64,000 nucleotides of DNA from Candidatus Yanofskybacteria bacterium RIFCSPLOWO2_01_FULL_42_49 (GTDB lineage: Bacteria; Patescibacteriota; Minisyncoccia; 2-02-FULL-40-12; GWA2-44-9). Below, one piece after another: positions 424 through 50,909 of this stretch. The notes below the pieces were generated by a model. It ran no database searches, was not told the origin of the DNA, and saw only the letters and a program-made list of their open reading frames with translations. The stretch covers positions 22,324 through 86,323 of the forward strand of contig MGKI01000004.1 of assembly GCA_001795615.1 (NCBI GenBank), written 5' to 3'. Within the stretch, counting starts at the first letter, position 1. Every line of letters starts with the position of its first letter. A program made the translations under genes and the position numbers.

Positions 424-990
424 TTAATTTAATTCAGAATTTACTTTCTTTAGAAAGAAAAAATACTCTTTGTTTTTTCCTTTTCCGCCAAGCAAAGGCG
501 ACTCTGTTTCTTTCAGCACTTCGACTCCGGTTTCCAGCAACTTGCTACGAACACCGCTTAAAACCTCCGGCATAAAGTCTTCCTGCAATTTACCCTTACG
601 CAACATCCCGGGTTCGGATTCATAATGAGGCTTTACTAATGCCAGTATATACCCTTCCGGCTTAATATTCTCTAAAGCATTTGGAACCACTTTATCTAAC
701 TTGGTCCACCCTGTATCTACCGTAATGAGGTCGACTTTCTCGGGCAACTCCACATGCATGGCATTCTTTTTCTCCATTACGACTACTCTCTTGTTCTGTC
801 TCAATTTATAATCCAATACCCCATAACCGGTATCTACCGCATAAACCTTGGCGGCCCCATTTTGAAGCAAACAGTCAACAAAACCGCCGGTGCTTGAACC
901 AAAATCAGCACAAATTAAATTGGCAACATTAATTTTAAATTCTTTTAACGCATACTCCAATTTTTCACCAGCTCTTGAAACATAGCTCAT
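424..990 (-). CDS. tlyA: TlyA-like rRNA 2'-O-ribose methyltransferase (FtsJ fold); the ORF extends to 1017 but the ATG at 990 avoids overlap with polA
   Basis: Translation carries an FtsJ/TlyA SAM-binding block (DFGSSTGGF...VYAVDTGYG); no S4 domain. Confidence 0.7.
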   Translation of the reverse strand: MSYVSRAGEKLEYALKEFKINVANLICADFGSSTGGFVDCLLQNGAAKVYAVDTGYGVLDYKLRQNKRVVVMEKKNAMHVELPEKVDLITVDTGWTKLDKVVPNALENIKPEGYILALVKPHYESEPGMLRKGKLQEDFMPEVLSGVRSKLLETGVEVLKETESPLLGGKGKNKEYFFFLKKVNSELN

Positions 991-3695
991 ATCTTTAACT
1001 CGTCCATCTCCGCCCAATTGTGTCCGCTCTTAACATCTACAACCAGCGGCACATCGAGTTTGTAAACATTCTCCATAATATCCTTTATTTTGTCCGCTAT
1101 GTTTTTAACCGAGTTTTCTTTTACTTCAAAAAGGAGTTCATCGTGGACTTGAAGCAGTAAAAATACTTTGTCTTGCTTGCCTGAATTATGTGTATATTCA
1201 AAGGCTTTTATCATTGCCAGTTTCACCAAATCAGCGGCAGTACCCTGAATGGGCATATTTATAGCCATGCGCTCGGCCTGGCTTACAATCTGTGGCATAC
1301 TTGACCTTATCTCGGGGAACCATCTCCTTCTGCCAAAGACCGTTGAAACATAACCGTCCTTGCGGGCTTTCATTTTCATATCGTCCATGTATCTGGCGAT
1401 CCCGGAAAACTCTTTCAGATACTTGTCGATAAATTCTCTCGCCCGCTCACGGGAAACACCGGAAGCTCTCTGAAAGCCGAGAATTCCCATTCCGTACAAA
1501 ATGCCGAAATTCATAACTTTTGCGTCACGACGCATGTTTTTATCAACCATCTCCGGTTTAACACCGAAAATTTCCGCCGCTGTGCGTGTATGAATATCCT
1601 CTCCCCTCCTAAATGCCGCCATCATTTTCTCGTCTTGGGAAATATGGGCCGCTATTCTCAACTCAAGCTGGGAATAATCAAAAGACACCAGTTTGTACCC
1701 AGGAGAGGCAATGAATGCTTTCCTAAATTCCTGCCCAAGTTCCGTGCGTATTGGTATGTTCTGGAGGTTAGGGTCCTGGCTGGCAAGCCGGCCGGTCGTA
1801 GTGCCTGTTTGGTTAAATGTAGTATGCAACCGTCCGGTTGTCTTGCTTATTAAACTCGGGAACGGATCTATGTAGGTCGTTTTTAATTTCTGAACTTCTC
1901 TATATCTTAATATCTTCTCTATTACCGGATGTTCGTCAACCAGCTTTTCCAGCTCGCCCGCAGCTGTGGAGAGAGCCCCTTTGGCTGTTTTTCTTACTTT
2001 GCCCTTTAGGTTAAGTCCGGTAGGTGCCGGACCAAAAAGCACCTCTTTTAACTGTTTCGGAGAGTTAATGTTAAATTCCGTGCCGGCTAGTTTGTATATA
2101 TCTTTTTCCAGACCGCTTATCTCGACGGCCACCAATTTAGACAACCTTGCTATCGCTTTGGAATCAATCAAAATTCCCCGCAATTCCATTTCCGCTAGAA
2201 TTCTTGCTGTTGGAGCCTCTATATTCTCAAAAAGCCATTCCAATTTTTCTTTTTTTAGCCGTTCGGATTGTCTTTCTTTTAACTTACCCACAAAAACAGG
2301 GACCTCTCTGGTGTTTTGGCTAATACTTTCTTGAAATTCATCAAAATATATTTTTTCCAGACTGTAATCTTTGCGGTCTGAATTTAAAAGATAGGCCGCA
2401 AGCTTGGTGTCAAATCCCGCACGGCCCAGCTCAATTCCGAAACTTAACAAGAGCTTGGCCGACCCCTTGAGATCGTGACCGATTTTAAAAACCCCGTCTC
2501 CCTCAAAAATATCTTTGGCAGTTTTAAACAGGTCTTTGTCTTCCACAATCATGGGCCAAACTGCGCTAAAACATCTTTTTTCAACGCAAAAATCAAAAAA
2601 TTCACTGCTTAAATTAAATGAAAATTCTCTCGCCTCTTTTATCTCATTGAAAGCCCCGGCAACATCTTTCTTTTTTCTCAACTCTTTAACGCCGGCGGAA
2701 GTTTCCGTTTTGACGGTTTCCGGTAACACCATCTGCCCCTGACTGAAAATACTGATTTCATCAAGCCTCTTGATCAAACTATAAAGTCCTAATTCTTTAA
2801 ATAACTTCTCTATTTCTGTCCTGTTTAAATTTTTAAGCCAGTCCGCTTTATCCAGACTAAAATCAATGTCTACATCCCTTATAATGGTGGCCAATTTTTT
2901 TGAAAAAAATGCCATGTCTTTGTTTTCAAGCAGTTTTTGAATTAATTTCTCTGAAAGTGGCGGTTTAATTTGGATTTTATTTTTTTTGAGATTTGTATTT
3001 TGAGATTGTTTAGAGATTAGGGTTTCGAGATTAGAGATTTCCTCATACAAAAATTCAAGGGTCTTGAATTTTTGTATGAGAGCTGCCGCCGTCTTCTCCC
3101 CCACTCCCGGAACCCCCGGTATATTATCTGACGGGTCGCCCTTGAGACCCTTAAAATCATTGAGTTGCTCCGGCTTTAAGCCATATCTTTTGAACACTTC
3201 GTTCTCGTCGTAAATGACCGTATCTGTGACACCTTTTCTCAACGTAAAAACAACCACCTTGTCTCCATCAACCAGCTGAAGAGTGTCCAGATCGCCGGTC
3301 ATTATTATTGTTTGGATATCTTTATCTTCTTTTGACCTCTCTGCCAAGGAACCTATCAAATCATCCGCTTCAAAACCGGGCTTTTCATAAATAGGAATAC
3401 CGAATGCCATCAGTATCTCTTTAATCAGCGGAGTCTGGGCATGAAGTTCGTCGGGAGCTTTCTCCCTGTGAGCCTTATACTCAGCAAACTCTTCGTGTCG
3501 GAATGTCGGCGCCGCCAAATCAAATGTCGCCGCAATATAGTCCGGCTTTATGTCCTTTATCATTTTGAGGAGAACAGCGGTGAAGCCGAAAACTGCGTTC
3601 GTCGGAACGCCCTTGGGAGAACTTAGCGTCGGCGGCAGAGCGTGAAAAGCTCTGTGGACTAACGCGTGACCGTCAATCAATACTAATTTTTTCAT
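987..3695 (-). CDS. polA: DNA polymerase I
   Basis: 902 aa; N-terminal 5'-3' exonuclease (LVLIDGHALVHRAFHA), polymerase motifs RRDAKVMNFGILYGMG and QVHDELLFE. Confidence 0.92.
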   Translation of the reverse strand: MKKLVLIDGHALVHRAFHALPPTLSSPKGVPTNAVFGFTAVLLKMIKDIKPDYIAATFDLAAPTFRHEEFAEYKAHREKAPDELHAQTPLIKEILMAFGIPIYEKPGFEADDLIGSLAERSKEDKDIQTIIMTGDLDTLQLVDGDKVVVFTLRKGVTDTVIYDENEVFKRYGLKPEQLNDFKGLKGDPSDNIPGVPGVGEKTAAALIQKFKTLEFLYEEISNLETLISKQSQNTNLKKNKIQIKPPLSEKLIQKLLENKDMAFFSKKLATIIRDVDIDFSLDKADWLKNLNRTEIEKLFKELGLYSLIKRLDEISIFSQGQMVLPETVKTETSAGVKELRKKKDVAGAFNEIKEAREFSFNLSSEFFDFCVEKRCFSAVWPMIVEDKDLFKTAKDIFEGDGVFKIGHDLKGSAKLLLSFGIELGRAGFDTKLAAYLLNSDRKDYSLEKIYFDEFQESISQNTREVPVFVGKLKERQSERLKKEKLEWLFENIEAPTARILAEMELRGILIDSKAIARLSKLVAVEISGLEKDIYKLAGTEFNINSPKQLKEVLFGPAPTGLNLKGKVRKTAKGALSTAAGELEKLVDEHPVIEKILRYREVQKLKTTYIDPFPSLISKTTGRLHTTFNQTGTTTGRLASQDPNLQNIPIRTELGQEFRKAFIASPGYKLVSFDYSQLELRIAAHISQDEKMMAAFRRGEDIHTRTAAEIFGVKPEMVDKNMRRDAKVMNFGILYGMGILGFQRASGVSRERAREFIDKYLKEFSGIARYMDDMKMKARKDGYVSTVFGRRRWFPEIRSSMPQIVSQAERMAINMPIQGTAADLVKLAMIKAFEYTHNSGKQDKVFLLLQVHDELLFEVKENSVKNIADKIKDIMENVYKLDVPLVVDVKSGHNWAEMDELKI

Positions 3696-4627
3696 TACAA
3701 TTTTAAAATTTCGTCATTAAATGCTGACCTAATATAAATTTCGCCATTCCCGTGAGTGACTTTCCCAATAACACAGGCATTATTTACGCGGGAAAGAACT
3801 TTAGAGACCTCTTGTTCAGGGACAGAAAGAACAAATCCTATGCCACAGTTGAATGTAGAATACATCACCTTATTTGAAAATATTTTTTTATATATGTCTT
3901 TAAATATTCCCTGGGGTTGCAACTTTTTAGGATGTTCAATAACCGCGTCAGCCTTGTACAAAATATCTTTCAACTTGGTAAATGCTCCGCCGGTTATGTG
4001 CATCATGCCGTGGACATCGCATTTTTCTGTCAATTTCAAAATATCGTACAAATAAATGCGTGTCGGCACTGTAAATTCTTTTCTGTACTCTTTGCCAAAA
4101 ACTTGCCTGACTTTCGTCATGCCGTTTGAATGCAAGCCGTTACTCCTTAACCCAATAAGAACATCCCCAACTTGAAACCTGTTTCTTGCTGGATTTTTGA
4201 TAAATCCGGAAACAGTCATACTGATATCAAGTCCGTCCGTGTTGTCGTGGAATGAATTTTCTCCCCCAACCATAGCTATTTTATACTTCTTGCACTCTCG
4301 CGCTATAGCCTGCACTATTTTCAAAATACGCTCATCTTCCACGGGAACTGTAATATGATTTGAGAGCTTATATGGAAAAGCTCTCACAGTGGCTAAATCG
4401 TTAAGGTTCATTGCGAGAGCATCAATAGCCGCCGCTTTAAATGTTTCTCTCTGCCAATGGTAAAAGCCTTTTGTGCCTATGCCGTCCGTATGGTCAACTT
4501 CAAGACAGGAAATTTTGCTTTTGAATATGGGGTAGGTATTAAACTTAATGCTTAAACATGGAGAATTCCAAGTCTTTCGTATCTCGTTAATAATTTTCTG
4601 TTTGTACGGCTTTGACGGTTTATACAT
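3695..4627 (-). CDS. AIR synthase-related protein (PurM-like)
   Basis: Motifs DGIGTKG, VGGENSF, SNGLHSNG typical of the PurM/ThiL/HypE superfamily. Confidence 0.55.
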   Translation of the reverse strand: MYKPSKPYKQKIINEIRKTWNSPCLSIKFNTYPIFKSKISCLEVDHTDGIGTKGFYHWQRETFKAAAIDALAMNLNDLATVRAFPYKLSNHITVPVEDERILKIVQAIARECKKYKIAMVGGENSFHDNTDGLDISMTVSGFIKNPARNRFQVGDVLIGLRSNGLHSNGMTKVRQVFGKEYRKEFTVPTRIYLYDILKLTEKCDVHGMMHITGGAFTKLKDILYKADAVIEHPKKLQPQGIFKDIYKKIFSNKVMYSTFNCGIGFVLSVPEQEVSKVLSRVNNACVIGKVTHGNGEIYIRSAFNDEILKL

Positions 4628-4628
4628 G

Positions 4629-5093
4629 TTAAACTCTTTCCCAACTTATTTTTCGCTTGCTTTCGGAAACATGATCAATATGAACTTTTATTAGTTTTTT
4701 GGGCAAGATCTTACTCACTCTTTCCGGCCACTCGATTAAAATAATACTACGCGACTCGTTGAATATAGTTTTCAGGTCAAGAGTTATGAGATCTCTATGG
4801 TCTCTGACGCGGTAGCAATCGAGGTGATATAAACAGGTTTTAGGTTTTAGGTTATAGGTTATAGGCAAAATTGGATATTTTTTCATCAAAACAAATGTTG
4901 GACTTTTTATTTTTGCTTTAATCCCCAGTGCCTTGGCAAAACCTTTGACAAAAGTCGTCTTCCCCGCCCCCAACTTCCCTTCAAGTGTGATAACACTCGC
5001 CCTGAGCCGAGTCGAAGGGTTTTTCATTATTTTAAGCGCCAAATCCCCGGCAATTTTTTGCGTCTCTTTTTCGCTTTTAGATAGATAAATCAC
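4629..5093 (-). CDS. tsaE: tRNA threonylcarbamoyladenosine biosynthesis ATPase TsaE (YjeE)
   Basis: P-loop GKLGAGKTTFVKG, then SPTF..YHLDxYR. Confidence 0.8.
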   Translation of the reverse strand: MIYLSKSEKETQKIAGDLALKIMKNPSTRLRASVITLEGKLGAGKTTFVKGFAKALGIKAKIKSPTFVLMKKYPILPITYNLKPKTCLYHLDCYRVRDHRDLITLDLKTIFNESRSIILIEWPERVSKILPKKLIKVHIDHVSESKRKISWERV

Positions 5094-5204
5094 TGTTAAA
5101 TAGTATCGTTTTTAAACTCTTTTTACAATTAAAGAACCGCATTCGCTGGATGTCCGTCGGGAGACGGACCGCGAATGCGGTTTGGACTGTTTAAGCCCTA
5201 TGGA

Positions 5205-5657
5205 CTAGTTGCACCGGCCGGCCGGTGCTTCGTGGAGTACCACAATGGAGTGGTACTCACAGTCATCGCGGGTTGGGAACCCACGGGACTGCCAGCCGGG
5301 CACCGGCGGTTGGACTGGAGTCGGCTGCTGGACCACCGGCGCCGGCGTTGCCGCCGGTACGATTGCAGCCGGTGCCGTCGGTGAAACCACTGGTGAACCT
5401 GCAAAACCGCCACCGAGCCAGACCCCAAGCACCACCATACCGACAAGCACAGAGATACTTCCGATGATGAACCCGACGAGCTTGACACGAGCCCACAGTG
5501 GGTCCTGTGCTACCTGCCTCAACAGCAACGGCTCAGAGAGCCGCCGCAATTCAAAATTCATCTCGCCCGGCCGGGGTGGCCGAGACGGTGTCGGTGTGGG
5601 CGGCGCCGGTGTTACCGGCGCCGCCGGAGTTGTTGGTGTTGCCATCGTTACCTCCAT
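5205..5657 (-). CDS. Hypothetical proline-rich membrane protein, inside the high-GC island
   Basis: 150-aa ORF with Pro/Thr/Ala-rich termini and a central TM segment. GC-rich DNA gives many spurious overlapping ORFs, so this call is tentative. Confidence 0.35.
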   Translation of the reverse strand: MEVTMATPTTPAAPVTPAPPTPTPSRPPRPGEMNFELRRLSEPLLLRQVAQDPLWARVKLVGFIIGSISVLVGMVVLGVWLGGGFAGSPVVSPTAPAAIVPAATPAPVVQQPTPVQPPVPGWQSRGFPTRDDCEYHSIVVLHEAPAGRCN

Positions 5658-6418
5658 ACCAGGACGAGACCGTCCCGGCCTTCGGGCTTTGTACGGACTG
5701 TATCCGCCGTGCCCGAGAAACCGTCAACTACCATGGAGAGCACCTCGGCCTCGTAGGAAGCGCGGGGATCCCCACATTCCGACTGACGAGGAAGAAGATC
5801 CACATACCAGGTTCCGTTCTGGTACACTTGCACGGGATTCCTGCCCTCGTTCTTGAGGGTAGCCATCCCCTGTTCTAAACAGCCGCGATGGCTGCCGAAC
5901 AAGGAACCGCCACTATTCGCCTGTTCACGCAGACGCGGATTCCAGCCGTTCTCACGGCCGGGACCGGACGACACCTGCGCCGTCTGCGGCATCGGTGGAA
6001 TCTGATCGGGCAAATCCACGACTACTTCCTTATCGTCGTCGTCACCCCTTTTGCTGAATGCCCAGGCAAGAAGTCCAGGGGCAGCACCAATACCGGCACC
6101 AATCGCGGTACCTTTCCAACCGTGGCCAGTCATGGCACCAATTGTAGCCCCGATCTCGGCCCCGGCAATCGCAATCCGAACCGGGCGAGAAAGCCGGCGA
6201 CCGAAGCGGTCATACATCCCGTAGAACTGACCTCCTCGAGTATAGCCGTACATGTCGCCATACCACATCCAGCGATCCACCATGTTCAGGTTGGACTGCA
6301 GGAGCTGGTCTGCCGGACCGTACTGGCCGGCGAAGATCTGCGCATTGGCCGGCGTGACGCCGGCAAGAAGCGCGAACACGAACGCGAGAGCGATGAACAA
6401 CGTCTTTTTCATTCTCAT
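5648..6418 (-). CDS. Secreted glycine-zipper protein, inside the high-GC island
   Basis: Signal peptide MRMKKTLFIALAFVFALLAGVTPANA and Gly-zipper AIAGAEIGATIGAMTGHGWKGTAIGAGIGAAPG; RBS GGAAGGA upstream of MRM. Confidence 0.5.
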   Translation of the reverse strand: MRMKKTLFIALAFVFALLAGVTPANAQIFAGQYGPADQLLQSNLNMVDRWMWYGDMYGYTRGGQFYGMYDRFGRRLSRPVRIAIAGAEIGATIGAMTGHGWKGTAIGAGIGAAPGLLAWAFSKRGDDDDKEVVVDLPDQIPPMPQTAQVSSGPGRENGWNPRLREQANSGGSLFGSHRGCLEQGMATLKNEGRNPVQVYQNGTWYVDLLPRQSECGDPRASYEAEVLSMVVDGFSGTADTVRTKPEGRDGLVLVWR

Positions 6419-45037: not shown

Positions 45038-45940
45038 TTGTTCTTTGATATAATGACAGAGATGTTATCGACGGTAAAAGTTAGGTGTCATTTTTGTCGT
45101 AAACCATTCCTGACAAAAAAGGCTTATTTTGTTTTTAATAAAGAGGTCGGTTATCATTCATTTTGTTCCAAGGAGTGCGGATACAACCATAGAAAAACCG
45201 GTAAATGGCTCATCTGCGGAAACCCTAATTGCGAGAAAAAAATTTATAGAAACTTGGCTGGCATCTCTCCGTTCAACTATTGTTCCAAGTCTTGTGCCGC
45301 AATAGTTAACAATCAAAAATATCCCAAACATCCTCCGAGATATTGTGCATATTCTGGATGCAAGAACATGGTAAAAAGAGTCGGGTCTCCTTTTTGCTCT
45401 ATAAAATGCGGCAAACTAAGCAAGTTTAAATACACCAAAGAAGAAATCGTCACCTTAATTAAAGAACATGTCGCTAAAACAAATAGGGTACCCCCAAAAA
45501 GGGAGGTTCCTGAAATATCACACAAAGCCATACATTTATTTGGTTCGTGGAACAATGCTCTTACCATTGCCGGTTTAATACCCAACCGTTCTCACAACAA
45601 TAGAATGTATAAACGTCTGAATGGAAAAGCAGCAGATGGGCATCTCTGCGATTCTGTTTCAGAAATACTTATTGATAACTGGCTGCACAAGAATAAAGTT
45701 AAGCACTCAAGAAATGTACCGTATCCAAAAACTAATCATGTTGCGGACTGGGCAGTAAACAACGACAAGGTTTTTGTTGAATACTTTGGACTTGCTAACG
45801 ACAGTCCAAGATATGACCGCACAATAAAAGAAAAGAAATTGCTGTGCAGAAATAACCGAATCAAACTAATTGAAATATATCCAAAAGATCTGTATCCTAA
45901 AAACTTACTCGACAAAAGATTGTTTCCCGTTTTAAAATAG
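45038..45940 (+). CDS. Multi-zinc-ribbon protein with a homing-endonuclease-associated repeat and a C-terminal Vsr/DUF559-like PD-(D/E)xK nuclease domain
   Basis: Four CxxC...CSKxC units; FGSWNNALTIAGL (HE-associated repeat); C-terminal ADWAV..VFVEYFG..YDRTIKEKKLLCRNNRIKLIEI (DUF559-like). Confidence 0.6.
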   Translation: MFFDIMTEMLSTVKVRCHFCRKPFLTKKAYFVFNKEVGYHSFCSKECGYNHRKTGKWLICGNPNCEKKIYRNLAGISPFNYCSKSCAAIVNNQKYPKHPPRYCAYSGCKNMVKRVGSPFCSIKCGKLSKFKYTKEEIVTLIKEHVAKTNRVPPKREVPEISHKAIHLFGSWNNALTIAGLIPNRSHNNRMYKRLNGKAADGHLCDSVSEILIDNWLHKNKVKHSRNVPYPKTNHVADWAVNNDKVFVEYFGLANDSPRYDRTIKEKKLLCRNNRIKLIEIYPKDLYPKNLLDKRLFPVLK

Positions 45941-47228: not shown

Positions 47229-47453
47229 ATGAAGAGAATCATTCAATTCCACATCTCCAAGGGTGATAAATACTATACTGCCGAAGGGGTTGATTTACCT
47301 GTAGTTACCCAGGGTAAAACCTTAGATGAATTAGCGGTAAATATTCAGGAGGCAGTTGACCTGCATTTAGAGGGCGAGAATCCTGCTGATTTTGACATTG
47401 CTCCGAATCCCTCTGTTTTGATGAATTTTGAACTTCCTCAGATTCATGCCTAG
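47229..47453 (+). CDS. hicB: HicB family antitoxin (UPF0150)
   Basis: 74 aa RNase-H-like fold typical of small HicB; overlaps hicA. Confidence 0.6.
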   Translation: MKRIIQFHISKGDKYYTAEGVDLPVVTQGKTLDELAVNIQEAVDLHLEGENPADFDIAPNPSVLMNFELPQIHA

Positions 47454-47688
47454 ACTCAAGGTCTTATCAGGTGAAAATGTGATAAAGATTCTTGAGTCTT
47501 TTAATTTTGCCATAATTTCCCAGAAGGGCAGTCATGTTAAACTTCGTAGAACCATAAAGAAAAATAATCAAACACTTACTATCCCCAATCACAAAGAGTT
47601 AGATAGGGGAACTCTTCGGGCCATTTTTAATCAGGCTTCAAAATACATCTCCGAATCAGAACTCATGCCCCATTTTTATAATGAGTAA
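47446..47688 (+). CDS. hicA: HicA family mRNA interferase toxin
   Basis: GSHVKLRR...TIPNHKELDRGTLRAIFNQA (HicA/YcfA motif). Confidence 0.7.
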   Translation: MPRLKVLSGENVIKILESFNFAIISQKGSHVKLRRTIKKNNQTLTIPNHKELDRGTLRAIFNQASKYISESELMPHFYNE

Positions 47689-47759: not shown

Positions 47760-50700
47760 ATGGATAAAATTTTCTACGACTTAAACGACAAGCAAGCCGA
47801 GGCCGTCAAAATAATTGACGGCCCGGTTTTAGTTATTTCTGGTCCAGGTTCGGGAAAGACCAAATGTCTTACTCACAGAGTCGCGCACCTAATTTCTACG
47901 GGCGTAAAACCCGAAAACATTCTTTGCCTGACCTTCACCAACAAGGCGGCCGGTGAGATGCGAGAACGAGTTTCTCGCTTACTTGAGGTTAAACCTCAAT
48001 TTAGCAGGGGACTAATTTTTGCGACTCCACTTATTGGGACATTCCACTCCATCGGCCTCAAAATTTTACGGCGAGAAATTCACCATCTCAATTACAGAAG
48101 CAACTTCACTATTTTTGATGCTGACGACCAGAAAAGTTTAGTCAAAAGAATAATCGCCGAGCTAGAGTTAGATAGTAAAAAAACCAACCCTAGCGCCGTA
48201 CTTTCCAGAATATCACGCCTAAAAACAGAATTTATTGAACCTAAAGACGCGCCTTCAGAAGAATTTTTTGAGAAAGTGGTGGGCAATATCTATAAGCGCT
48301 ACCAAGAAGAGTTAAAAAATCTTAACGCCGTTGATTTTGACGACCTCATTGTTCTTTGTGTGAAGATCTTTCAACAAAATTCGGAAACACTGAAAAAATA
48401 TCAGAATCTATGGAAATATATGCTCGTTGACGAGTATCAAGACACGAGCCGAGACCAATATGAATTTATATCCCTCCTAGCCAAGGCCAATCGCAATCTT
48501 TTTTGTATTGGAGACGACGCCCAGTGTTTACCGCCAAAGACCGAAGTTAAAACGGAAAAAGGGTTTAAAAATATTGAAGATATAGGGGTTGGGGAGACCA
48601 TATTGTCGCCAGCTGGCCTTGGGAATACATGCTATGCAATGGTTACAGGAACAAAAAAACGTTACTACAAGGGCCCTTTGCTGGAAATACAAACAAAACT
48701 TGGTTACAAACTAAGAAGTACACCCAACCATGTCACTTTCGGTAAGTTATTGCCGTCAAAAAACTTTTTCATTACTTATCTTATGTTCTCTGAAAAAATT
48801 GGCTACAGAATCGGCATAACTGTCGGTGAACGACATCCAAAAAGCAGTAAGCCGGCACTGGGACTGAATGTCAGAGCAAATCAGGAAAAGTCGGACAAAA
48901 TGTGGATACTTAAAATATCTCCCAGCCGCGCAGACGCTCAATATTGGGAAGCATACTATGCTTATAAATATGGCATCCCAACCACCATATTTTTCGCGGA
49001 TCGGGGCAAGGGAGTAAGTAACAAGATGATTTTAACGCAGAAACATATAGATAATTTGTATAAAGCGATACCCTCCGCGGAAAGAGCGGCAAACTTAATG
49101 CTGGACGAATATATTTATCACGAATATCCTCACCACAGACCCCAAGCAACCGTGAGATATCAAACAAGAAGAATAGCGGTTAACTTAAACTACTTTGGAG
49201 CAGCCCCCGGACCACATATAAAAAACTCCTTATTCAGAGGTGCCAGGGTAAGCATTAACAATAGAAACGAAGATATTAAAAAACTACTAATCAAAGAAGG
49301 GTTTAATACCAGAAAAGGTAAGGCAAGCACGTGGCGCGTGGAAACTTCCAGGAGAGACAATGGCGACGCTGAATTATTGGCGCAAAAATTAAGTTCACTG
49401 TGCAACGTAGAAATATCTAAAAATGCGCTAATTACTGACTTAAGATTTAGCTTTCTGCCGACCTCTCAAATACATCCTCACATGACAATCCCCGTATTTA
49501 ACGGAAATAAAATAATTAACGATGAGGTAGTGGGAGTTAAAAAAACAAATTACAGCGGTTTTGTATACGACTTAAATATTAAAAGAACCCACACCTTTAT
49601 TGCTGACAACTTTCCTGTTCATAATTCGATTTACCAGTTTCGTCGAGCTGACATAAGAAACATACTTAACTTTCAAAAGGATTATCCTGACGCGAAGGTC
49701 GTAATGCTGGAACAAAACTACCGTTCAACCAAAAGCATCATCACCGCCGCTAGCCACTTGATAGCTAATAATAAAAATCAAGTATCCAAAGAGTTGTGGA
49801 CCGATAACAACGAGGGAGAGAAAATATTGGCCAAAGAACTTCTGAATGAACGGCAAGAAGCAGGTTTTATTGTATCCACAGTTAGAGACATGGTCAAAAA
49901 GGGGCGCAAACCAAATGACTTCGTGGTCTTATATCGCACCCATGCCCAATCCAGAGCTGTGGAGGAAGCACTCATATCAGCAGGATTTCCTTATCATATA
50001 GTCGGGGGCATCAAGTTCTATGAAAGAAAGGAAATTAAAGACATTCTTGCTTATCTTAAATTTCTAACAAACCCGGCTGATATCATCAGCTTTGAGAGAA
50101 TATATAATGTCCCTCCGCGGGGGATAGGAGCTGCTCTGCTAGAGAAAATCACAAAACGCCCCAGTACCAGAGCAGAGAACGGTACGGGGCACAGCAAATC
50201 ACAAAACACAAATAAAAACTCAAACGTTGACTTAAGAAAAAACCTAAAAGAAATGACGAGCAGTAAAGAACTCTCAAAAAGACAGCATGAGGCTATTAAA
50301 AGTTTTCACATCCTGTTAGAAGAAATAGCTAAGGAGGCCGACAAAAGCAAACTGACAAACTTAATAAAACATGTCATCAAATCAACCGATTACGAGAAAT
50401 ACTTAAAAGAAACATGGGCACCGGAAAACGCTGAAGAACGGCTGGAAAACCTTAAAGAACTTCTCACTGTCGCCAGAAAATACGATCCGCCGGCTGGCGG
50501 ACGCGAATCATGTTATGAAGGAATGGTTAGATTTCTTGAAGAGATTGCTTTGCTTCAAGATATGGACCGCGTTAAAAATACCGATAACAAAATAACTTTG
50601 ATGACCACCCACGCTTCCAAGGGCCTTGAATTCCCGGTTGTCTTTATCATTGGTCTTGAAGAAGGGTTGTTCCCTCACTCGAGAACGCTTTTTTATCCTG

Positions 50701-50909
50701 ACGAACTTGAAGAAGAAAGACGGCTTTGCTATGTAGCTATCACAAGAGCAAAAGAAAAACTAATCCTAACTTTTACGAAATATAGAAATATATTCGGCTC
50801 AACTCAAACTAATCTCCCGTCCAGGTTTCTAGGAGAGATACCGGCGCACCTTGCGTTATTTGAAACGGGCGGAGTCGATTTTAACGACGAAGATAAAATT
50901 TACTACTAA
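47760..50909 (+). CDS. uvrD: UvrD/PcrA family ATP-dependent DNA helicase with an in-frame intein
   Basis: Motif I GPGSGKT, motif II LVDEYQDT, motif III split as GDDAQ|intein|SIYQFRRAD, motif V/VI TTHASKGLEF...VAITRAK. Confidence 0.9.
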   Translation: MDKIFYDLNDKQAEAVKIIDGPVLVISGPGSGKTKCLTHRVAHLISTGVKPENILCLTFTNKAAGEMRERVSRLLEVKPQFSRGLIFATPLIGTFHSIGLKILRREIHHLNYRSNFTIFDADDQKSLVKRIIAELELDSKKTNPSAVLSRISRLKTEFIEPKDAPSEEFFEKVVGNIYKRYQEELKNLNAVDFDDLIVLCVKIFQQNSETLKKYQNLWKYMLVDEYQDTSRDQYEFISLLAKANRNLFCIGDDAQCLPPKTEVKTEKGFKNIEDIGVGETILSPAGLGNTCYAMVTGTKKRYYKGPLLEIQTKLGYKLRSTPNHVTFGKLLPSKNFFITYLMFSEKIGYRIGITVGERHPKSSKPALGLNVRANQEKSDKMWILKISPSRADAQYWEAYYAYKYGIPTTIFFADRGKGVSNKMILTQKHIDNLYKAIPSAERAANLMLDEYIYHEYPHHRPQATVRYQTRRIAVNLNYFGAAPGPHIKNSLFRGARVSINNRNEDIKKLLIKEGFNTRKGKASTWRVETSRRDNGDAELLAQKLSSLCNVEISKNALITDLRFSFLPTSQIHPHMTIPVFNGNKIINDEVVGVKKTNYSGFVYDLNIKRTHTFIADNFPVHNSIYQFRRADIRNILNFQKDYPDAKVVMLEQNYRSTKSIITAASHLIANNKNQVSKELWTDNNEGEKILAKELLNERQEAGFIVSTVRDMVKKGRKPNDFVVLYRTHAQSRAVEEALISAGFPYHIVGGIKFYERKEIKDILAYLKFLTNPADIISFERIYNVPPRGIGAALLEKITKRPSTRAENGTGHSKSQNTNKNSNVDLRKNLKEMTSSKELSKRQHEAIKSFHILLEEIAKEADKSKLTNLIKHVIKSTDYEKYLKETWAPENAEERLENLKELLTVARKYDPPAGGRESCYEGMVRFLEEIALLQDMDRVKNTDNKITLMTTHASKGLEFPVVFIIGLEEGLFPHSRTLFYPDELEEERRLCYVAITRAKEKLILTFTKYRNIFGSTQTNLPSRFLGEIPAHLALFETGGVDFNDEDKIYY
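48525..49625 (+). mobile_element. Intein (367 aa) inserted in helicase motif III of uvrD
   Basis: Starts at the Cys after GDDAQ (CLPPKTEV); block B TPNHVTF; ends ...FPVHN followed by Ser of the extein; the length is a multiple of 3. Confidence 0.8.

Follow-up and report, generated by a model that had tools for sequence, protein, structure and literature searches.

A UvrD/PcrA-type helicase intein from a Candidatus Yanofskybacteria genome with a large, unannotated middle domain and a probable GIY-YIG-like nuclease core

What interrupts motif III of a helicase gene in Candidatus Yanofskybacteria bacterium RIFCSPLOWO2_01_FULL_42_49, and what does the domain at the centre of the interruption do? 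The gene lies in a 64,000-nucleotide (nt) stretch of DNA that was analysed as a whole (hereafter the window; GenBank assembly GCA_001795615.1, contig MGKI01000004.1, positions 22,324 to 86,323, forward strand), and all positions below are those of the window unless another record is named. An earlier note, made from the sequence alone, had read the interruption as an intein with either an endonuclease or a linker at its centre. Here, we report that the insert is an intein whose middle domain represents a large, conserved domain family, likely a mobility nuclease, with a probable GIY-YIG-like core. The gene, its exteins, and the splicing elements lie as follows.

47760-50909, forward strand: PcrA/UvrD-type superfamily 1 (SF1) helicase precursor gene, 1049 codons plus stop
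47760-48524, forward strand: N-extein (helicase residues 1-255), closing with ...FCIGDDAQ, in which the first half of motif III lies
48525-49625, forward strand: intein, 367 codons, CLPPKTEV...FPVHN, with an Intein_splicing profile match, an AlphaFold model, and a Hint fold
48525-48752, forward strand: N-terminal half of Hint, with block A Cys1 at 48525-48527 and block B TPNH at 48720-48731
49440-49625, forward strand: C-terminal half of Hint, with block F Asp349 at 49569-49571 and block G His-Asn at 49620-49625
49626-50909, forward strand: C-extein, opening with SIYQFRRAD (+1 Ser at 49626-49628), which completes motif III

The host protein matched UvrD-helicase (Pfam PF00580, E = 6e-82) and UvrD_C (PF13361, E = 3.5e-78); its score against the pcrA equivalog model TIGR01073 was 740 bits, under the cut-off of 911, so the protein could be either a PcrA or a UvrD. 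The split of motif III after GDDAQ by a 367-codon in-frame insert, as placed in the earlier note, proved exact at both boundaries: CLPPKTEV...DNFPVHN occupies protein residues 256-622, with FCIGDDAQ on the N side and SIYQFRRAD on the C side. Comparison of the extein with intein-less UvrD proteins, which that note had proposed as a check, gave a seamless motif. The spliced 682-amino-acid (aa) sequence aligned with Geobacillus PcrA 1PJR (E = 4e-169, residues 4-665) without a gap at the junction (cigddaqsiyqfrrad / avgdadqsiyrwrgad), and the nearest intein-less orthologue (P0161, 89% identity) carries an uninterrupted FCIGDDAQSIYQFRRADIRNILNFQ, identical across the junction down to the unusual FRRAD. 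The GC content of the intein (0.396) is similar to that of the exteins (0.41) and therefore gives no compositional hint of recent arrival.

Intein profiles, against which the earlier note had suggested a search, returned matches over threshold to Pfam Intein_splicing (PF14890; 46.8 bits, E = 3.7e-12, gathering score 35.8) and to TIGR01445 intein_Nterm (25.4 bits, cut-off 24.5, spanning intein residues 1-69). The 24-residue C-terminal model TIGR01443 scored 13.1-14.9 bits, just under its cut-off of 15.6, and in phmmer the Pho RadA, Npu DnaB, and Mja KlbA inteins matched the last 50-80 residues. Conservation was assessed over 105 sequences, comprising 104 full-length homologous inteins from an exhaustive profile search and the present copy. 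C1, H69, and N367 are conserved in 100%, H366 in 99%, D349 in 98%, and T66 in 94%; block B reads T66-P-N-H69, block G reads H366-N367, and the +1 residue is Ser. Block A Cys1, block B, the terminal His-Asn, and Ser +1, all named earlier, hold, and block F Asp349 is added to them. Cys1 is present in 104/104 homologues and His-Asn followed by Ser or Cys in 103/104 (S in 79, C in 24). With a spaced slash marking each splice junction, the insertion point is always GDxxQ / C...HN / [S/C][I/V/L/M]Y, mostly followed by x[W/F]RG.

The whole intein was modelled with AlphaFold2 on 25 diverse family members (predicted local distance difference test [pLDDT], 92.7; predicted template-modelling score [pTM], 0.90). 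In Foldseek, the Hint part reached template-modelling scores (TM, normalised to the target) of 0.80 to hedgehog Hint 1at0 and of 0.78 to both Npu DnaB 4o1r and Mtu RecA 3ifj. We regard it as virtually certain that the insert is a class-1 intein of the Hint superfamily. The chance that it is an ordinary lineage-specific UvrD domain, or an artefact, is negligible: intein profiles were matched over threshold, the Hint fold is present, the splice-junction residues are near-invariant in the 104 homologues, and the nearest orthologues run colinear through the site without the insert. The identical 1049-aa protein is encoded by eight independent metagenomic contigs, and therefore no assembly artefact is involved.

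Because the full class-1 catalytic set is present, we infer, on good grounds of sequence and model, that the intein is splicing-competent. Splicing would run in the class-1 order: first an N-S acyl shift at Cys1, then trans-esterification onto Ser+1, and last the cyclisation of Asn367, which His366 would aid. Thr and His of block B and Asp of block F would assist. As motifs and fold suggest, excision of the 367 residues would join GDDAQ to SIYQFRRAD and restore motif III.

A homologous intein at the syntenic PcrA-RsmA locus of a relative (GCA_964446215.1) contains an in-frame TGA (3987-3989 of that record), 27 codons before the terminal His-Asn, where natural split inteins break. The next ATG, GTG, or TTG downstream is a GTG that lies four codons from the intein end; the gene is called as two open reading frames (ORFs; 585 and 408 aa), and the neighbouring genes appear intact under code 11. 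The TGA may reflect recoding or an error in the consensus, or the gene may be a pseudogene.

Between blocks B and F of the present intein lies the middle domain (intein residues ~76-306, ~230 aa), which is laid out as follows.

48756-49004, forward strand: N-lobe, aa 78-160, beta-beta-alpha-beta-alpha, putative GIY-YIG-like nuclease core
49017-49139, forward strand: connector, two helices (aa 172-181 and 184-194) and then a conserved YPHH (P202, H203)
49167-49433, forward strand: C-lobe, aa 215-303, beta-beta-alpha-beta-beta-alpha-beta (218-301), putative DNA-recognition lobe

Searched as a single sequence or as a profile, the middle domain had no match in Pfam, NCBIfam, PHROGs, or PDB sequences, and no HNH family appeared in Pfam, NCBIfam, or PHROG scans of the domain and its family. 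The earlier remark that no LAGLIDADG or HNH motif is evident is borne out, with neither found in Pfam scans of the domain, its members, and the consensus. The middle domain is a large, conserved, unannotated domain family and not a linker. An exhaustive search with a profile of seven copies recovered, at E <= 1e-3, the representatives of 1669 clusters built at 50% identity, of which 905 reached E <= 1e-10; a word-indexed homologue search, which had given only six and then five relatives, greatly understated the size of the family. Since the centre is a conserved domain family of ~230 aa, the linker half of the earlier alternative falls, and the endonuclease half is kept as probable.

Conservation is spread unevenly over the intein. 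Positions conserved in at least 95% of the sequences number 13/83 in the N-lobe, 2/76 and 3/62 in the Hint halves, and 0/89 in the C-lobe, so that the N-lobe holds 13 of the 20 near-invariant positions (Y85, L86, M87, G93, R95, G97, R117, E121, W127, E142, G150, P152, and F156, each at least 97%). The present copy keeps every residue conserved at or above 95%. In the connector, P202 is conserved in 98% and H203 in 95%, H203 not being retained in the versions from Bacillus phage SPO1 and from Streptococcus suis phages. The uneven conservation of the lobes indicates, from the alignment, an enzyme core joined to a fast-evolving recognition part.

Three other candidates were set aside. A PD-(D/E)xK or HNH reading of E121/D124/K125 plus the PHH motif was ruled out by topology and because the inteins of SPO1 and the S. 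suis phages do not retain H203. Some short N-lobe proteins that looked "free-standing" (P0156, P0095, and others) proved to be intein fragments or gene calls from an internal Met, not independent genes. An out-of-frame or antisense endonuclease was rejected; the intein contains three antisense ORFs (61-85 aa, TTG/ATG starts; 48756-49405, minus strand), none of which had a Pfam match.

Which nuclease fold, then, would the N-lobe have? Its elements (strands 82-89, 93-100, and 125-132; helices 113-120 and 135-149) agree between the whole-intein and domain-only models, and in both models their beta1-beta2-alpha1-beta3-alpha2 order is the core topology of GIY-YIG enzymes. The consensus of an N-lobe hidden Markov model (HMM) had GIY-YIG (PF01541) as its top Pfam match (E = 4.4e-4, 20.9 bits, HMM positions 1-68 of 78), and GIY-YIG was the sole match, nearly full-length, in two of three subgroup consensuses (E = 0.013 and 0.18). 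Single members matched GIY-YIG at E = 0.021 and 1.8, and one matched T5orf172, a GIY-YIG-like ("Uri" endonuclease) family, at E = 0.028; the best PHROG match of the N-lobe family was PHROG 314, "homing endonuclease" (E = 0.029).

Profile-profile and fold comparisons were made as well. Using hhalign, the 105-sequence N-lobe alignment was compared with a reference alignment, built from annotated phage records, of 14 bona fide I-TevI-like catalytic domains (P = 0.002). The pairing set WILKISP-SRADAQYWEAYY against FECSILEEIPYEKDLIIERENFW and E142 on I-TevI Glu75, and greedy extension of this low-confidence alignment held the register, with Y85 on Tyr6 (GIY) and G97 on Gly19 (YIG). There was no signal when the N-lobe was compared with the single I-TevI sequence, and global mode against the I-TevI-like domains gave a nonsense alignment. 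A Foldseek search of viral models (BFVD) ranked three true family members first, followed by weak matches that included several GIY-YIG homing endonucleases (20-22% identity over ~135 columns) mixed with LAGLIDADG enzymes. The candidate catalytic residues would be Y85, the aromatic residue at 94, R95, R117 (or R103), and E142. In the family, Y85 (100%), [Y/F/W]94-R95-x-G97, R117 (98%), and E142 (99%) are kept even in the divergent SPO1 and S. suis phage copies.

Several results count against this assignment. The consensus score of 20.9 bits is under the PF01541 gathering score of 22.6, no GIY-YIG test reached a curated or conventional threshold, and the hhalign probability was only 13-14%. Most individual members had no Pfam match of any kind, a profile search of PDB sequences found nothing, the Foldseek PDB top 50 for the middle domain were all LAGLIDADG with no GIY-YIG, and the fold E-values of non-family matches were all weak (at least ~3e-3). 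The R+4 position is Glu (E121) instead of the usual His, Tyr, or Lys, and the counterpart of the GIY-YIG Arg is ambiguous between R103 and R117. On sequence and model together, membership of the N-lobe nuclease core in the GIY-YIG superfamily is probable, not proven, and the explanation as a whole is held no more firmly than this weakest part.

The same fold searches suggest a different history, in which the middle domain is a strongly degenerate double-LAGLIDADG endonuclease that has lost its motifs, with the N-lobe as the remnant of the first half. All of the top 50 PDB fold matches were LAGLIDADG enzymes (I-OnuI, I-LtrI, I-TnaI, I-SmaMI, I-CreI, and I-MsoI; E from 3e-3 to 5e-2, local matches of ~80 aa at a root-mean-square deviation [rmsd] of 4-5 Å, global TM ~0.2), some 3Di alignments extended over ~260 columns, and the best Foldseek E-values of the whole intein (5e-7 to 5e-5, TM ~0.27) were to the LAGLIDADG-bearing inteins TliVMA, PI-SceI, and PI-PfuI. 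The alpha-beta-beta-alpha-beta-beta-alpha order of the C-lobe also suits a LAGLIDADG half, and DIKKLLIKEGFNTRKG gave a local match to a LAGLIDADG_3 domain (P = 0.064). We nevertheless consider a degenerate LAGLIDADG enzyme unlikely. The Pfam models LAGLIDADG_1/2/3 had no match at E <= 10 in the present domain, 25 members, or the lobe consensuses, whereas the second intein of the KP13-16 helicase, used as a positive control, did match LAGLIDADG_3; with hhalign, neither lobe had a significant match to I-CreI or to the LAGLIDADG domain from KP13-16. The first hairpin has no preceding helix, and the N-lobe has three strands, not four. Acidic residues ending the putative LAGLIDADG-like (connector) helices are only 60-80% conserved, with Pro at one of them in the present copy, and the near-invariant residues are located in the N-lobe. 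Global TM was only 0.18-0.27 (rmsd, 17-25 Å), and the SPO1 and S. suis phage inteins retain the N-lobe without the C-lobe. With a GIY-YIG-like N-lobe preferred, the modelled C-lobe reads as a LAGLIDADG-half-like DNA-binding saddle without a LAGLIDADG active site, and this variable beta-saddle, together with the helical connector, would most likely give target recognition.

Does the intein move? The spliced helicase was compared with its 120 best homologues, of which 119 (650-711 aa) carry no intein, including the closest at 89, 84, 80, and 78% identity and named representatives from Candidatus Yanofskybacteria and other Patescibacteria. The nearest intein relative (P0001) is only 55% identical, and related inteins occur in Saccharibacteria, Nomurabacteria, Taylorbacteria, and one Sarcina genome. 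Because 119/120 of the nearest exteins are intein-free and the nearest intein relative is so distant, the intein is sporadic in its lineage, a spread that, by sequence comparison, is as expected of a horizontally moving element. No co-conversion signature was visible in the Yanofskybacteria lineage, where the nearest intein-less allele is too diverged (~13% nucleotide difference). On the contig of the nearest intein relative, unrelated sequence follows ...MTVPV (~4790-5918) and adjoins a reverse-strand ORF whose translation reads as a NuoM-like membrane protein; this contig is probably a chimeric metagenome assembly.

The same module occurs at other sites and in other genes. A 2433-aa UvrD-like helicase (P0066) has three inteins (residues ~590-986, 1030-1370, and 1830-2108), all with the N-lobe, in motif II (HN / CQD), motif III (HN / SIYSWRGA), and motif V (HN / STKGAEW). 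In Streptococcus suis phages, the N-lobe, without the C-lobe, is found in an intein of an adenine methyltransferase (...QHEP / CQPAG...VTHN / CLFGWK). Klebsiella phage KP13-16 encodes a 1198-aa UvrD-like helicase with two inteins (500-4093 of its piece; annotated as "hypothetical protein"): that of the P-loop has an apparent Ala start (GTGK / AQPL...VTHN / T) and LAGLIDADG_3, and the other lies in motif III and has the middle domain.

Closely related phi92-like phages differ in the presence of the intein. With a fused-extein probe from phage JohannJBalmer, the site was uninterrupted in some close relatives (matched as one 903-nt piece, 95-97% identity) and occupied by the intein in others. The intein-less alia (NC_052655.1) and "Justusliebigvirus alia" OZ035770.1 are assigned to the same phage species and differ by a 1041-nt intein. 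Over more than 1 kb to each side, their flanks differ at 0-3 positions per 100 nt, but the 100 nt next to the insertion hold 11 mismatches on one side and 17 on the other; the junction substitutions are mostly synonymous and span about -27 to +50 from the insertion point. As read from these two sequences, the pattern is a classic homing footprint of short co-conversion tracts plus target-site divergence. Presence and absence among phages and the clustering of substitutions at the junction argue that the intein family has a working endonuclease, on the basis of phage relatives that are ~27-32% identical to the present intein over the matched middle domain.

These distributions also bear on the idea that the middle domain is no nuclease and has a structural, DNA-binding, or regulatory role in an immobile, vertically inherited intein, possibly acting as a helicase switch. 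That no nuclease family scored over threshold and that the GC content (0.396 versus 0.41) carries no signal of recent arrival both favour it at the expense of a mobility nuclease, and a post-translational regulatory role has been proposed for inteins located in ATPase motifs (PMC4760082). It has a small chance in our estimation, given conserved residues that are polar or aromatic and active-site-like (Y, R, R, E, E, W), a sporadic spread with the intein missing from 119/120 nearest exteins, the same module in inteins of unrelated host genes and sites, and near-identical phages that vary in intein presence with substitutions concentrated at the junction. We consider it likely that the middle domain is a functional mobility nuclease. 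In such a role, the nuclease, whether in the free intein or still within the precursor, would cleave pcrA/uvrD alleles that lack the intein, in or close to the coding sequence of motif III; once the break is mended on the template of the intein-bearing allele, the element would have been copied in (homing).

The intein alone adds little, because helicase inteins are well known; the interest lies in the inserted domain, which is abundant, missing from Pfam, NCBIfam, and PHROGs, and moves between host genes. A wider picture, which we offer tentatively and hold to be somewhat less than an even bet, is of a large undescribed intein class in which an in-frame GIY-YIG core drives homing, fused in full-length versions to a LAGLIDADG-half-like recognition lobe, and active in bacteria of the candidate phyla radiation (CPR), in Firmicutes, and in phages of several groups, its sites lying in DNA methyltransferases as well as at several helicase motifs. 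If true, full-length versions would be the natural counterpart of engineered GIY-YIG/LAGLIDADG chimeras, and a new endonuclease type would stand beside the LAGLIDADG, HNH, Vsr-like, and EndoVII-like enzymes of inteins. A GIY-YIG identity would also fill a gap in the literature, where GIY-YIG is recorded from introns and free-standing genes but not from inteins, and the compact ~80-residue nuclease with its variable recognition lobe would be of interest for engineered nucleases. Annotation would gain, as many phage records name such precursors "hypothetical protein" or plain "DNA helicase." The phi92-like phages offer near-isogenic intein-bearing and intein-less E. coli K-12 phages, tractable for direct measurement of homing.

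Elsewhere in the window, the helicase gene is immediately preceded by two small overlapping ORFs (47229-47453 and 47428-47688; 74 and 86 aa). A HicA_toxin match of the second in the Pfam table makes a HicB/HicA toxin-antitoxin pair likely. At 45038-45940 lies a Cys-rich ORF of 300 aa with numerous CxxC pairs; its counterpart on a sister contig matches PF18780 HNH_repeat.

How does the intein compare with known systems? Sixteen UvrD inteins were recorded by Novikova et al. in 2015 (PMC4760082), and PMC5874633 counts UvrD/Rep/PcrA among the hosts of inteins, citing insertions in the P-loop. The present intein shares with these surveyed inteins the UvrD/PcrA/Rep host family and placement in an ATPase or catalytic motif; it differs in its motif III site, the P-loop being the only site given for DnaB, PcrA, and UvrD (PMC5874633), and in its CPR host, Patescibacteria being missing from the phyla listed in PMC4760082. 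Closer counterparts are the inteins of SPO1 gp34.33 (also CampHawk and Goe2) and of phi92-like coliphages, which occupy the same motif III site (GDxxQ / C...HN / [SC][IVLM]Y.FRG) and combine a class-1 Hint with the same N-lobe (YLM...FRVG...R...W...E...YGI). Those copies, from which the present intein differs at the ~27-32% identity given above, reside in phages, whereas the present one is in a cellular CPR genome; the annotated 275-aa intein of SPO1 gp34.33 lacks the C-lobe that the present intein has. The SPO1 and phi92-like records are silent on the nature of the inserted domain. JohannJBalmer is annotated as "intein-containing UvrD / Rep family helicase precursor"; its intein mat_peptide (2258-3298) includes the +1 Cys, leaving the mature helicase one residue short (EFQ / IYQFRG, not EFQ-C-IYQFRG).

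With PI-SceI, PI-PfuI, and the Tli/Pho VMA inteins, the present intein shares the layout in which an inserted domain, here a likely endonuclease, splits Hint between blocks B and F, and possibly a likeness in the fold of the C-lobe; unlike LAGLIDADG inteins, it has no LAGLIDADG motif or Pfam signal, and the lobe that forms its conserved core has three strands in the order beta-beta-alpha-beta-alpha. Non-canonical endonucleases of inteins were surveyed in 2025, and the types listed were only in-frame HNH, antisense LAGLIDADG, Vsr-like, and out-of-frame EndoVII-like (10.1101/2025.01.02.630785). Dassa et al. (2009, PMC2677866) reported free-standing GIY-YIG genes between the split-intein halves of fractured genes and described GIY-YIG as "not known to be present in inteins." A full-text literature search for inteins with GIY-YIG or T5orf172 found no in-frame GIY-YIG intein domain, within a coverage that mostly leaves out subscription journals, so an earlier description is possible. 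The present domain is translated in frame within a contiguous intein, unlike GIY-YIG enzymes encoded by separate genes or by intron ORFs. With I-TevI and the Seg proteins, the intein likely shares the catalytic fold and the pairing of a nuclease core with a separate DNA-binding part; NUMOD-type DNA-binding modules were not detected in it, and its likeness to GIY-YIG in sequence is sub-threshold. Like GIY-YIG homing enzymes, it is tied to a conserved gene of DNA metabolism. UvrD-type helicase inteins, including phage inteins at this same site, are already known, and the domain inserted in the present one is probably a new, undescribed variant.

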